Shown: positions 52,011-56,061, counted from the first letter of the stretch. The stretch: 64,000 nucleotides of DNA from an uncultured Phycisphaerales bacterium (GCA_963755915.1 CAVWLP010000002.1:4864001-4928000); one strand, 5' to 3'. Numbers and translations are program-made. The notes: generated from the sequence alone by a model not told the origin.

Positions 52011-52967
52011 ATGGCCAAGCCTCGGAAGTCGGCGTCGTTGCCGAGCCGCAAATCCTCTATTTCCGCCGACCTATGGTGGCGTTGCGCACTTCATGGGACG
52101 ATTTTTCTTATCTTTGCATCGGGGATCGTTTCACTGTTTCGGTTCAGCGAGATTTATGTCGATCGGCGAATCGCTTTTCCGACGGAGCCGCCAAAGGTTG
52201 TTCTGGCAAATCGACCGGTGTGGATGACCGATTTCCTGGCCGATCAGATCATGCGATCGATCCAGCCGGTTGGGTTGCACTCCTCGTTTGATCGTCAGCT
52301 ACTCGTTCAAACGTCCCGATCGCTGGGGGCTAACCCGTGGATTCAATCCGTCAACCAAGTCCGACGGGTCTACCAGGACCATCCCGGAGACACGCTGCAA
52401 ATCGATTGCGTCTACCGCGCCCCAGCGGCGGTCGTGAAATGGGGGCAGTTTTTCTGGCTGGTGGACTCGCATGGGGTAAAGCTTCCGGAGCAATACACCG
52501 CCGACCAGTTGCCGAAAATTCTCGTGGGCACGGATGGGAAGGCGAATATTCGCATTATCGACGGCGTTTCGAGGCCACCATGTGAGCCGGGACATGTCTG
52601 GTCCGGCGAAGATATCGCCAGCGCTCTGGAAATGGCGCGGCTGTTGTCGACGGTCGATTGGGCGGATCAGATCCGGGTGATCGATGTCAGCAACCTCTCC
52701 GGGCGACGGGACATACGCGAGGCGCAAATCGTTCTAGTGACGCGTTTTGGCACGCAAATCCGCTGGGGCCGGCCGCCCAGTGCGGCGGACGCGTTCGTTG
52801 AAGTCTCTCCTGCGGTGAAGCTTGCCGCCATCGACAATATCTTCTGGCGCGATCAGCGTGTCGACGCCAATCAGCCGTGGATCGACGTGCGTTTTGATCG
52901 GGTCACCTGCCCTGGGGAAGCGCAAAACGCCACGGCACAAGTCGATAGCACTTCAAACGCTCAATAA
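52011..52967 (+). CDS. FtsQ/DivIB-like bitopic membrane protein (divergent)
   Basis: Follows ddl. Basic N-tail, one transmembrane segment, POTRA-like NPWIQSVNQVRR...YRAP.A, LVDSHGVKL, IRWG and IDVRFD. Confidence 0.65.
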   Translation: MAKPRKSASLPSRKSSISADLWWRCALHGTIFLIFASGIVSLFRFSEIYVDRRIAFPTEPPKVVLANRPVWMTDFLADQIMRSIQPVGLHSSFDRQLLVQTSRSLGANPWIQSVNQVRRVYQDHPGDTLQIDCVYRAPAAVVKWGQFFWLVDSHGVKLPEQYTADQLPKILVGTDGKANIRIIDGVSRPPCEPGHVWSGEDIASALEMARLLSTVDWADQIRVIDVSNLSGRRDIREAQIVLVTRFGTQIRWGRPPSAADAFVEVSPAVKLAAIDNIFWRDQRVDANQPWIDVRFDRVTCPGEAQNATAQVDSTSNAQ

Positions 52968-53031: not shown

Positions 53032-53672
53032 ATGGAACACTCGAAAACAAACCTGAAATCAGCGGCGATCGTGATTTGGCTATTGGTCCAGATTGCGGCT
53101 TTGGCGGCGTGCGCGGATCGAATCACGTTTTGGGCGCGCTCGCCGGCGGCTGGGGAGCAATTGGCGCTGGCGGTGATGCTCTGTGCGCAAGTCGGAACCA
53201 GCTCCTTGATATTCCCCTATCTGTTGAGCAGTCGCAACTCGACGATACTCGCGATTGTGAGTGGTTGGCCGCTGGCACAATTGGCAGCGTACTTGTCGGA
53301 CGCGTCGCTAACTCAAGCCGCGGGGGGAGAGCTTTATGTTTCGGCCTGGCTGCTGGGGCTGACTTTTTATTCTCCGCTGCTTCGAAGTGAATCGGCGAAA
53401 CTGATTGGCGCGGCACTGGCAGCCATGATTGCGCTGGGTGGGCCTTTCATTCTTTATCTGCGCCTGGAATTCGCTGCCGGTGTGAGCGTGCCGTTGCAAT
53501 CGTTCGCCTCGTTTGGACCGGTTGATGGTGCGCTTTCCCAGACTTGCGCACGGGATACTCCGCAGGATCCATCGTGGCGTGGGCGATTCCAGCGGCGTTA
53601 ATCGCCATCGGGGCGGCGTTGAATTTTGCAATTTGGAAGCGTCGCGACAATTCGCGACAAGTTATCCACTGA
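53032..53672 (+). CDS. Polytopic membrane hypothetical protein, probable frameshift near 53545
   Basis: Several transmembrane segments. An alternate frame adds a last one, SIVAWAIPAALIAIGAALNFAIWKRR...VIH*, ending at 53672. Confidence 0.6.
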
Positions 53673-53777
53673 AATTTCACATTGCGGATGCGGGTTGAAT
53701 CGCTGTTTTTTCGTTGAAAATCCCAAACGAAGCCTTATCGGCGCGAAAAACATTTTCATGATTTTTTGCGCGCACTC

Positions 53778-53844
53778 TTGCATCCCGTGGGAGGCTTGGT
53801 AAAGTTTCCCTGTCAATCCCACATACACAAGGTCATGTGGGGAG
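53778..53844 (+). promoter_or_regulatory. mraZ promoter with putative MraZ autoregulatory (G)TGGG boxes
   Basis: TTGCAT, 16-bp spacer, TAAAGT with an extended -10 TG. GTGGGAG at 53787, GTGGGGAG at 53837, and an inverted pair cccacat/atgtggg. Confidence 0.55.
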
Positions 53845-53859
53845 AAATCCTAGAACCTG

Positions 53860-54306
53860 ATGCCGGTATTCTTTGGCGAACATGACCTCTCAATCGATGA
53901 CAAAAATCGCCTCCTTATTCCGGCCCAGATTCGGAAAAAGATTGACCCGGAAGTTGATGGAAGAAGTTTGTTTGTAACCTTGAAACGTAACAACCATGGC
54001 ATGATCCCGTGGTTTTATCCCGAGGCCTTTTTCATGGGCCTCGTGAAACAAGGAGCTCCGGCCGTTTTAGCACCTGATGAGCAGCAACTCAAGTTCACGT
54101 ATGAAACACTTTCGATCGCAGACGAATTGGAGTGGGACAATCAGGGACGAGTAGTTTTATCGGAAAAGATCCTTGGCCGGGCCAGTCTCGGAAAGGAAGT
54201 GACTCTCGTCGGTGCGAATGAACATTTGGAGTTATGGAATCGGAGTGCATGGGTCGCTTTTCGGGATTCGGGATTTAAGACTGAGCCTCGTGTATTGGAC
54301 AGGTAG
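53860..54306 (+). CDS. mraZ: Transcriptional regulator MraZ
   Basis: FFGEHDLSIDDKNRLLIPAQIR, WDNQGRVVL and LVGANEHLELWN (two DxxxR motifs). Confidence 0.9.
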   Translation: MPVFFGEHDLSIDDKNRLLIPAQIRKKIDPEVDGRSLFVTLKRNNHGMIPWFYPEAFFMGLVKQGAPAVLAPDEQQLKFTYETLSIADELEWDNQGRVVLSEKILGRASLGKEVTLVGANEHLELWNRSAWVAFRDSGFKTEPRVLDR

Positions 54307-54344
54307 TTTCGGGCCTCATATCGGGCAATGGGAAAGAAAGATGG

Positions 54345-54903
54345 AGTTTTGCGGGCCTTGAATAAGCACCGCAGAACGGGAATGAAAAGCAGTTGTAAGG
54401 GAACTGGAATCGACCGCGACCAGCATTTTAAAAACAGGCTGGTTGAATCATGTTTGTGGGCAGTTTTTCTCGCGGCGCGGGCGTATTCAACGCCGTGAGG
54501 AAAGATCGGGAGCCTGAATCAGGGAAGGTTTGGGTCTCCGCTAAATCCTAGTAGTTGAATGAGTTGCTCATCGCGACGACGGATGAAGTGTCGGCGGCAG
54601 GGATGCTCCGCGCTCATCGGCCGAATCCGCAAGGGAATGGATGCCCGTTGTTTGCGGATGCAGGATCGAGCGCGATGGCAGCAGCCATTTCGCGGCATCG
54701 GCGGGTTGTGCGATGCCTCGGAATGGGGCCTCGGAATGGGGCTTAGAGACCGGGGAAGGCTGTGGGTTTCGCTCCAGGGATCGGAACGAAATCCACCGCC
54801 AAACCGGTCATCACTAGAAGTCGTGTAGGTAGAGTCATCGCAAGTTGGATGGGATCCCTCGGCTGCAACCGAGGGCGGGCAGGATGCCCGGCTCTGCCTT
54901 TTA
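54345..54903 (+). ncRNA. Candidate large structured RNA with multiple GGA-loop hairpins (CsrB/RsmZ-like); boundaries approximate
   Basis: No credible ORF. At least 10 stems found by eye, with G-U wobbles favouring the + strand. 22 GGA versus 7 TCC in 54307-54905. Ends in a 10-bp stem followed by a T tract. Confidence 0.6.
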
Positions 54904-55014
54904 TACGAACAAAGTACTAACTCGCTCAGTATCTTATCTCTTGAGAGAAATTGCAAGTGGGAAAAAACTAAGGGTAATGGATCAATTCGGGGGCGGTAGG
55001 AAGTTTGAAATATC

Positions 55015-55033
55015 CCACGGCGGCGCCGTGGGC
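55015..55033 (-). terminator. GC-rich hairpin downstream of hemB
   Basis: cccacggc-ggc-gccgtggg, 30 nt past the hemB stop, with a weak U tract. Confidence 0.5.
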
Positions 55034-55063
55034 GTTCCGGGATCAAACTGAATCAATACCAAA

Positions 55064-56061
55064 CTAAGGGGTCAGCAGCTTCGCGGCGACTGCGGAAAAA
55101 TAGGTGATAATCATATCGGCGCCCGCGCGCTTCATCGCAGTTAAGGATTCCAGAACTACCGCGTCGCGATCCAGCCAGCCGTTTTTTGCCGCGGCTTCGA
55201 TCATCGAATATTCACCGCTCACCTGATAGGCCACCACAGGCACATTCACCGCTTGTTTGACTGCGGCGAGAATGTCCAGATATGGGAGGCCGGGCTTGAC
55301 CATCACCAGGTCGGCGCCCTGTTCGACGTCGAGCCGGGCTTCGCGGATCGCCTCGGGTATGCCACGGGCGGGGTCCATCTGATAGGAGCGGCGGTCGCCG
55401 AACTGCGGCGCAGAATCTGCCGCATCTCGGAAGGGGCCGTAAAACGCGCTGGCGTATTTGACGGAGTAGGCGAGGATTCCCACATCGCCAAAGCCCGCTG
55501 CGTCCAAGCCGCTGCGCAGGGCTCCGACCGCGCCGTCCATCATTCCGCTGGGGGCGACCAAATCGGCGCCGGCTTTGGCGTGGTTGATGGCTTGCTCCAC
55601 GAGCCGGGGCACCGTTGCGTCGTTCAGGACCGTGGAACCCTCGCCGGAGAGGATTCCACAGTGGCCGTGATTCGTGTATTCGCAGAAGCAAAGGTCGGTG
55701 ATGGCAAGCATCGGCGATTTTCGCGATTTCATTTCGCGCAGGAGGCGGCAGACGACGTTGTTGGGATCGAGCGCGGCCGATCCCTGCGGATCCTTGGCGG
55801 CGCGATCGATCACACCGAAAATGAGATAGGCGGGAAATCCTTCGCCGTGGCGCTCCTGGAGCCAATCGGCGGCGACATCGACCGACATCTGAAAAATCCC
55901 CGGCATCGAGGCAATTTCTTTGCGCGCCCCCTGCCGTCGCGCACGAAGACGGGAACGATCAGGTCGCGCCGCTGAAGGCGCACGCTTGCGAGGCTGCCGC
56001 GCATCAGCGGCGAAAGACGGAGCCGGCGCGGGCGCTGCGGCAGATCGGAATTCGCGGCCAT
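55064..56061 (-). CDS. hemB: Porphobilinogen synthase (Zn-type), frameshift near 55930
   Basis: RPRRLR, DLCFCEYTNHGHCG, APSGMMDG, KYASAFYGPFRDA, MVKPG and AYQVSGEYSM. Confidence 0.95.

Follow-up and report, generated by a model that had tools for sequence, protein, structure and literature searches.

Introduction

The closest described counterparts of the element reported here are CsrB and CsrC of Escherichia coli and RsmX, RsmY and RsmZ of Pseudomonas, small RNAs with multiple hairpins that present GGA in the loop. RNA antagonists of CsrA are described in Gammaproteobacteria, and antagonism by a protein of the FliW type elsewhere (PMC7652899, partial text). A high-affinity site for CsrA/RsmE is an ANGGAX hexaloop seated directly on a stem (Duss et al., PMC4005645, partial text), and the CsrA consensus obtained by in vitro selection (SELEX) is RUACARGGAUGU, with loops mostly of 6 nucleotides (nt) (PMC7652899, partial text). 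CsrA is reported to be especially prevalent in Planctomycetota (PMC13443453); our literature searches found no paper on the control of CsrA in that phylum. Here, we describe a large structured RNA located 3′ of mraZ, on the same strand, in a 64,000-nt stretch of DNA from an uncultured Phycisphaerales bacterium (GCA_963755915.1, CAVWLP010000002.1:4864001-4928000). The whole stretch is referred to as the window; it was located in its own genome at G000:C2:4864001-4928000, and positions are counted from its first letter. A preliminary description of the locus had proposed an RNA that titrates CsrA. This proposal is partly supported: on balance, the RNA is probably best read as a CsrA-binding decoy that is co-transcribed with mraZ, and both binding and titration are suggested by the loop motif.

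Like the Csr and Rsm RNAs, the element varies in its number of hairpins by lineage and occurs in a genome that encodes csrA, and its loops mostly adopt the ANGGAX hexaloop-on-stem form, which is the form of highest affinity (PMC4005645, partial text). Unlike them, it lies in a different phylum, is far more conserved and more elaborately folded, and is contiguous with mraZ in the division and cell wall (dcw) operon instead of forming an isolated small RNA gene. No sequence or structure homology to them was found, as Rfam gave no match in the window or in 14 homologue loci, and no two-component-system promoter was identified for the RNA. By analogy of motif, it appears to resemble CsrB/RsmZ in action without belonging to those families.

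A second point of comparison is the FliW-CsrA-flagellin partner switch of Bacillus subtilis and Campylobacter, since the same genome carries an uninterrupted run of flgL-like, fliW, csrA and flagellin genes. That system antagonises CsrA by a protein and not by an RNA (PMC7652899, partial text), and the RNA would form a second, RNA-based layer beside FliW, possibly for the other csrA paralogues. The mraW motif of Actinomycetales (RF01746; table of PMC2864571) is also a structured RNA placed before mraW/rsmH, as is the present RNA in most genera of its family. The two show no covariance-model match and differ in size, phylum and motif content; moreover, the present RNA is linked to mraZ, persists apart from rsmH and, in the window, does not stand before rsmH. 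The Rhodopirellula-1 motif, which has no Rfam accession and was compared by its row in the table of PMC2864571, is likewise a candidate RNA motif from Planctomycetes; it is reported in Proteobacteria too, while we detected our RNA in a single planctomycete family. Our literature searches found no paper describing the RNA family, with Rhodopirellula-1, to which it may correspond, compared by that table row only, and on this footing the family is new.

Results and Discussion

Conservation and Genomic Context of the RNA

Positions 54468-54898 of the plus strand are the core of a conserved structured RNA, which is real, single-copy and covarying. The core spans ∼430 nt in the window; counted from hairpin 2 as far as the 3′ end, it measures ∼330-810 nt in relatives. 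When 60 relatives were searched at the DNA level, all 12 genomes of the genus matched at least part of the core, with 67-72% identity over 54471-54902 in the longest matches, and the terminal ∼50 nt were also matched in other genera. The preliminary description had looked to homologues downstream of mraZ with covarying stems for confirmation, and both were found: tblastn placed mraZ upstream on the same strand in 30/30 fetched loci, and compensatory pairs were present in two alignments, as detailed below.

R1, a covariance model built on the three-way junction at the 3′ end, matched 112 of the 141 genomes of the family and 64 of its 76 genera, with one copy per genome and a weak second match in a single genome (the 141-genome tallies for R1 and csrA include the unpublished genome G014). 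An order-level search returned the same 141 genomes, as the order consists of this family alone. In a class-wide sample, R1 matched 15 of the 20 genomes of the family. Beyond the family, it gave six weak matches among the 130 other genomes of the sample, none of them near mraZ/rsmH; these were rejected as homologues and taken as chance or as hairpins resembling repetitive extragenic palindromic (REP) elements, GGGCAGGATGCCC. The weak matches in L070 (1998-2081) and L072 (1978-2060) consist of paired hairpins, for example ACGGGCAGGATGCCCGT beside GGTACGGGCG..CGCCCGTA, possibly a REP-like repeat.

In 14 of the 19 loci from outside the window's genus, rsmH (Pfam MraW methylase) lies 80-380 nt downstream of the RNA, and the other five show neither rsmH nor hemB within the fetched stretch. 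In the window's genus, a convergent hemB follows the RNA. Ancestrally, the RNA thus belongs in the dcw operon, in the spacer that separates mraZ from rsmH. The rsmH gene of the window's own genome is found at C2:1836784 (L077), ∼3 Mb from mraZ; the 190-nt spacer before it is ordinary and lacks an RNA of this kind. The linkage of the RNA is thus to mraZ and not to rsmH, and it has stayed with mraZ in the window's genus. Separately, the mraZ-rsmH spacers of other planctomycete families in L078, L081, L095, L097, L098 and L100 (315-664 nt) are GGA-rich; they appear to contain a small open reading frame (ORF; start in L095, ATGGCGACGAGG) and not a hairpin array, and the unaligned mraZ C-terminus may form part of each.

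The RNA matches no known family. Rfam gave no match at the gathering score over the whole window, none to the Csr/Rsm families up to E = 10 in 54200-55150, and none up to E = 1 in the 14 homologue loci, the Csr/Rsm families and the mraW motif included; the preliminary description had expected no match to RNase P, tmRNA, SRP or 6S RNA. The best candidate, Chloroflexi-1, lay on the minus strand and was rejected, as it scored 21.9 bits where the gathering score is 80.

Architecture and Covariation

Two alignments were used for pair counting, A1 for the genus and A4 for 38 sequences of the 3′ junction. The features of the locus are as follows.

53860-54306, plus strand: mraZ, ORF (Pfam MraZ, 57.1 bits); the RNA lies 3′ of it on the same strand at every locus examined
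54307-54467, plus strand: variable 5′ stretch, including hairpin 54346-54377, specific to the species and its closest relative
54468-54500, plus strand: hairpin 1, stem 54468-54477/54491-54500 (A1 helix 1; 10 pairs, 4 compensatory, 93.3% of cells paired)
54509-54539, plus strand: hairpin 2, hexaloop AGGGAA at 54521-54526 (inner stem 74% paired; 10 cells changed on both sides)
54582-54618, plus strand: helix GAUG/CAUC enclosing hairpin 54590-54611 (A1 helices 2 and 3, with 2 and 3 compensatory pairs)
54627-54657, plus strand: hairpin CCGCAAG/UUUGCGG with apical GGGA-AUGGAU-GCCC (A1 helix 4, 96.4% paired; pairs 175-206 and 176-205 covary)
54688-54723, plus strand: hairpin with conserved loop GCGGGUUGUG, without GGA (A1 helix 6; 12 pairs, 7 compensatory)
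54716-54743, plus strand: two tandem GCCUC-GGAAU-GGGGC hairpins, a duplication in the species and its closest relative only (L004, L005)
54758-54800, plus strand: long hairpin of 18 pairs, loop AGGGAUC at 54776-54782 (A1 helix 8, 6 compensatory pairs)
54828-54898, plus strand: 3′ three-way junction (model R1, alignment A4)
54828-54836/54890-54898, plus strand: junction helix P1
54847-54849, plus strand: GGA of the junction hairpin P2
54857-54874, plus strand: junction element P3
54875-54889, plus strand: junction hairpin P4, CGGGC[AGGAU]GCCCG
54899-54904, plus strand: terminator-like U-rich tail after P1, U-rich in 11/13 genus sequences
54904-54956, minus strand: promoter-like block TTGCAA, 17 nt, GATACT, then GTTAGTACTTTGTTCG, pointing antisense into the RNA

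The extent given in the preliminary description, with a start at 54345, holds for the structured RNA and fails for its 5′ limit, as the conserved core begins at ∼54468. DNA matches within the genus begin at query position 157-165, and 49 nt of 54307-54467 are absent from L005 and from one metatranscriptome contig. The stems listed earlier at 54346-54354/54369-54377, 54469-54477/54491-54499 and 54509-54520/54527-54539 (loop AGGGAA) were verified by eye. So were GGCA-GGGA-UGCU, CGGGC-AGGAU-GCCCG and, with UUUUAU after it, the stem 54828-54836/54890-54898 that closes the structure, and most of the listed stems recur in the minimum free energy fold.

The loop letters GGGAAG of hairpin 2 are invariant in 30/30 aligned homologues, and its hexaloop motif is present in 32/36 loci; RNAalifold returned no structure for the ungapped alignment of this hairpin, and the inner stem was supplied by hand for counting. 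The hairpin at 54590-54611 carries the hexaloop AGGGAU at 54599-54604, which reads A-N-GGA-Y in relatives. In the hairpin at 54627-54657 the loop is AUGGAU (54637-54642), and the form GGGC[AUGGAU]GCCC is seen again in other genera. The loop sequence CGGGTTGTGCG of the hairpin at 54688-54723 is conserved in the genus alignment, and the loop at 54758-54800 retains GGA in 10/12 genus sequences. Some of the GGA sites that had been listed earlier did not survive the comparison: the two GGAAU loops (54720-54737) and ACGGAUG (54581) are not conserved, and the other members of the genus have a single copy of the hairpin at 54716-54743, reading GAGAUGG or GAAAUGG, without GGA. The tail after P1 is U-rich in 11/13 sequences of the window's genus versus 2/25 from other genera, where GUAUCG extends the P1 stem in its place; on this comparison, the U-rich tail is a gain of the window's genus.

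RNAalifold predicted 91 pairs from the 12 genus sequences, 32 of them with compensatory changes. When 83 of these pairs were tested in A1, 93.2% of the cells were paired and 33 pairs were compensatory, a level that none of 500 shuffles attained, and sliding the partners lowered pairing to 41-44%. The junction alignment A4 gave 96.9% of cells paired and compensatory changes at 12/18 pairs, again with 0/500 shuffles as high. Folding energies, for which the preliminary description had proposed a z-score, lay below those of 20 shuffles per strand on both strands (plus strand, −263.7 kcal/mol, z = −6.08; minus strand, −209.8 kcal/mol, z = −5.09). The score by itself thus does not pick the strand.

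Strand and Transcript Evidence

Judged by its G-U pairs, the RNA is on the plus strand, in agreement with the earlier remark that most imperfect pairs are G-U on that strand. A4 contains ∼102 G-U cells versus 21 non-standard ones, and among its positions are some with U-G in 27 and 21 of the 38 sequences; read on the minus strand, the G-U cells would turn into A-C mismatches. Where both strands share a predicted pair (93 pairs), 65 cells are G-U and 37 are A-C in the plus-strand reading. RNAalifold assigned −225.8 to the plus strand versus −203.9 to the minus strand. The U-rich tail after P1 in 11/13 genus sequences also favours the plus strand.

A total of 22 RNA-labelled sequencing runs (24 rows, 19 studies) share words with the stretch. 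Contigs were mapped from four runs of four studies, all soil metatranscriptomes, and carry no strand. They cover 54189-54850, 54570-54897, 54572-54888, 54277-54593 and 54572-54755, so that the region 54189-54897 is represented in RNA libraries, and the first of them spans the 3′ end of mraZ into the RNA. The contigs of two studies stop at 54888 and 54897, beside the predicted 3′ end. None of the mapped contigs lies over 54898-55013, and only 33-35-nt fragments fall on hemB. The contig ends, together with the uncovered 54898-55013 and most of hemB, give a weak hint of a transcript end.

A consensus scan of 53500-55300 found no sigma-70-like promoter. In two loci of other genera inspected by eye (L017 and L020), hairpin 2 starts ∼25-55 nt past the mraZ stop codon, and a promoter of its own is therefore unlikely for the RNA in other genera.

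GGA Hairpin Loops

The hand count in the preliminary description, 22 GGA versus 7 TCC, proved exact (54307-54907), and the enrichment of GGA in loops that it had expected was recovered in the homologues. Under a strict definition (A(N)GGA within a loop of 4-7 nt whose stem has at least 4 base pairs (bp)), the 30 loci contained 133 such hairpins; dinucleotide shuffles yielded 22.0 ± 4.8, with a maximum of 37, and the opposite strand 9. When ANGGAN hexaloops with a stem of 3 bp or more were counted, 36 loci gave 139 versus 1 on the opposite strand, with a range of 0-13 per homologue. The background in the window's own genome is 0.197 per kb per strand, and 28 mraZ-rsmH spacers of other planctomycete families contained four. 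The excess of canonical CsrA-type loops is strong, strand-specific and family-specific.

In most homologues the loops read C[A-N-GGA-Y]G, fitting the CsrA/RsmE hexaloop consensus and also the selected consensus RUACARGGAUGU. GGA is present in the P2 loop of 36/38 junction sequences and in the P4 loop of 35/38, on covarying stems. Lineage-specific insertions bring extra A-N-GGA-N hairpins, as in one genus with 13 (L051) and in the insert of L009/L012. This last insertion, of ∼80 nt (intergenic positions ∼410-495), is a long near-perfect palindrome, GGCGGCATTGGCGGTGGTGGCTCACCGCCACCAATGCCGCC, that duplicates the GGGCAUGGAGGCC hairpin.

Across the window's own genome, 12 clusters of at least three ANGGAN hairpins per 450 nt were identified, 10 of them inside long open frames. 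The only two clusters outside long open frames are the mraZ-linked RNA and the csrA-flagellin leader region.

CsrA Genes of the Genome

The preliminary description had found no csrA in the window and made the proposal depend on one elsewhere in the genome; three matches lie above the Pfam cut-off. Across the family, csrA is present in 140/141 genomes, and its co-occurrence with the RNA is uninformative because the gene is near-universal.

One csrA stands in the row flgL-like, fliW, csrA, flagellin, which occupies L001:1-3137 (minus strand), equivalent to G000:C3 around 636000. The flagellin leader of 85 nt contains CAGGAAA, two CUGGAAA and AUCA-UGGAGGA-UUGAU over the ribosome-binding site. The whole RNA-binding core of this flagellar CsrA aligns with solved CsrA structures, the nearest being 5dmb_D, deposited as ‘Carbon storage regulator homolog’. 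The second csrA, at L002:1501-2217 (plus strand; G000:C2:925132-925848), encodes a 238-amino-acid fusion of a CsrA domain (Pfam, residues 1-53) with a cytidine/dCMP-deaminase domain (residues 96-190). CsrA matches within open frames of ∼250-300 amino acids in other family genomes suggest that the fusion is conserved. The third csrA is small and diverged.

A Putative CsrA Decoy and Its Alternatives

Taken together, a CsrA-binding decoy co-transcribed with mraZ is the reading that we hold slightly more probable than otherwise. The computational checks that the preliminary description had set all turned out favourably, and the analysis turned up none of the findings that it had named as fatal to its proposal, namely a missing plus-strand transcript, loops in which GGA is neither enriched nor conserved, a genome without csrA, or a strong match to another RNA family. 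In the proposed mechanism, the mraZ transcript would carry the RNA as its tail; ancestrally, this tail is the mraZ-rsmH intercistronic region of the dcw operon. The A-N-GGA-N hexaloop hairpins of the RNA would bind dimers of one or more cellular CsrA proteins, and the RNA, presumably released or stabilised on its own, would act as a decoy that reduces free CsrA in step with mraZ/dcw transcription. If the RNA does bind CsrA, the sponge principle reaches a distant phylum, has an independent evolutionary origin on a different and highly structured scaffold, and ties global post-transcriptional control to the mraZ/dcw operon in bacteria that divide unusually; the RNA may then be the first CsrA sponge outside Proteobacteria. 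A further extension is doubtful, yet can be formulated: a MraZ-controlled dcw promoter would co-produce the multivalent decoy, so that commitment to division or budding would free the CsrA regulon, including flagellin translation for a motile daughter, with the RNA as an antagonist beside the ancestral FliW, in a phylum from which no RNA-based CsrA antagonist is known.

Several observations weigh against a decoy. The csrA gene also occurs in the 29 family genomes without an R1 match, and FliW is encoded beside one csrA, so that this CsrA already has a protein antagonist. Genome-wide, the locus merely ties with 11 other clusters under the strict hairpin definition; under a loose one, GGA loops exceed expectation about two-fold, with no excess in some members of the genus, the locus is no outlier, and many coding windows score higher. 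A subclade of the genus (L039, L042, L043 and L057) shows no GGA-loop enrichment over shuffles, and the GGA of the P4 loop is lost in 3/38 sequences. Conservation also exceeds what a sponge needs, as seen in GGGAAG (30/30), the loop CGGGUUGUG without GGA, the string GAUGCCCGGCU and the three-way junction; this extra invariant sequence is a hint of tertiary structure or of another partner. DNA may occur in RNA libraries, so the contigs do not prove transcription. Unlike the classical Csr/Rsm small RNA genes, the RNA leaves little room for a promoter of its own in other genera. Finally, the promoter-like block conserved downstream of the RNA is directed into it in antisense orientation, and an antisense transcript is possible.

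The invariant letters beyond a bare GGA are also the first argument for a structured RNA that functions apart from CsrA, on its own or within a ribonucleoprotein, and uses its GGA loops for tertiary contacts or for another protein; its resemblance to CsrA sites would then be coincidental. The complex covarying architecture with its three-way junction points the same way, since the Csr/Rsm small RNAs are loosely conserved, unlike such an architecture, and so does the loss of individual GGA loops in some lineages. ANTAR-type proteins are a candidate for the other partner. They recognise hexaloops that bear A in the first position and G in the fourth, and their target RNAs consist of two adjacent hairpins with such hexaloops, the second of which overlaps a terminator. 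Compared with this definition, the hexaloops of the RNA carry A1 and G4 and, in addition, conserved G3 and A5, and the hairpins, up to 13 in number, are not arranged in terminator-overlapping pairs. The retention of the letters G-G-A, beyond A1 and G4, speaks against a role unrelated to CsrA. So does the fact that lineage insertions add A-N-GGA-N hairpins and not other structure, which fits a multivalent binding array, and that outside coding sequence such loops cluster at just one further place in the genome, the csrA-flagellin leader. We consider a role unrelated to CsrA possible and on the unlikely side. Even with a partner other than CsrA, the RNA defines a family of large structured RNAs that is new and well supported; most genomes of this planctomycete family, which is widespread in soil, carry one copy, and metatranscriptome libraries contain it.

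A cis-acting dcw intercistronic element that controls processing, stability, termination or read-through in the mraZ-rsmH interval, perhaps bound by CsrA in cis and without a decoy function in trans, would account for the position of the RNA between the two genes in other genera, where rsmH follows in 14/19 loci. Read-through into rsmH is plausible in those genera, as a U-rich tail follows P1 in only 2/25 sequences, and a structured RNA before mraW/rsmH has a precedent in the mraW motif of Actinomycetales (table of PMC2864571). The RNA is nevertheless intact in 12/12 genus genomes although rsmH lies 3 Mb away without such a leader. Where rsmH does follow, the RNA ends 80-380 nt short of its start, clear of the ribosome-binding site, and the Rfam mraW model gave no match. 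A purely cis-acting element is for these reasons rather improbable.

Least credible by far is a functional minus-strand transcript starting from the TTGCAA-17-NATAYT block, with the plus-strand hairpins as its mirror image: the conserved block and start region, the minus-strand energy below shuffles and the strandless contigs would allow it, whereas the ∼102 G-U junction cells turned into A-C mismatches, the lower alifold energy of the plus strand, the 139 hexaloops versus 1, and contigs that end at 54888-54897 without reaching the minus-strand start predicted near 54921 all oppose it.

The Promoter-Like Block and the Neighbouring Sequence

The minus-strand promoter-like sequence had been described as weak; it turned out to be conserved. 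A strict pattern of the block was matched on the minus strand in 12/30 loci, on the plus strand in none and in none of 100 shuffles, and variants were seen by eye in further loci. Its general form is TTGCAA, a 17-nt spacer and NATAYT, followed by a conserved GTTAG..TGTTCG. The block also occurs in L034, L035, L036, L039, L042, L043, L044, L049, L057, L058 and L060, and accompanies the RNA whether rsmH or hemB is downstream. A plus-strand promoter reading was rejected, as anywhere between 13 and >150 nt separate the block from the rsmH start and the block faces the end of hemB in the genus; a sigma-54 reading was rejected by eye for want of GG at −24.

The gene after the mraZ spacer is the convergent hemB, which ends at 55064 (Pfam ALAD, 404 bits) and leaves an intergenic stretch of 757 nt. 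The earlier statement that no credible gene follows mraZ in this stretch was borne out: the two longer inner ORFs have no Pfam match, and a protein-coding reading was rejected because the longest open frames shift strand and frame across 17 homologues. Immediately upstream of mraZ in the window, an ORF at 52011-52967 is likewise without a Pfam match. A dispersed repeat with the inner palindrome CCCACGGCGGCGCCGTGGG lies at 55004-55063, and in the DNA search (query positions ∼667-757) near-identical copies of 25-90 nt were abundant in the window's own genome and in relatives of the genus. The repeat has the appearance of a REP-type element, and metatranscriptome contigs of other loci touch it too.

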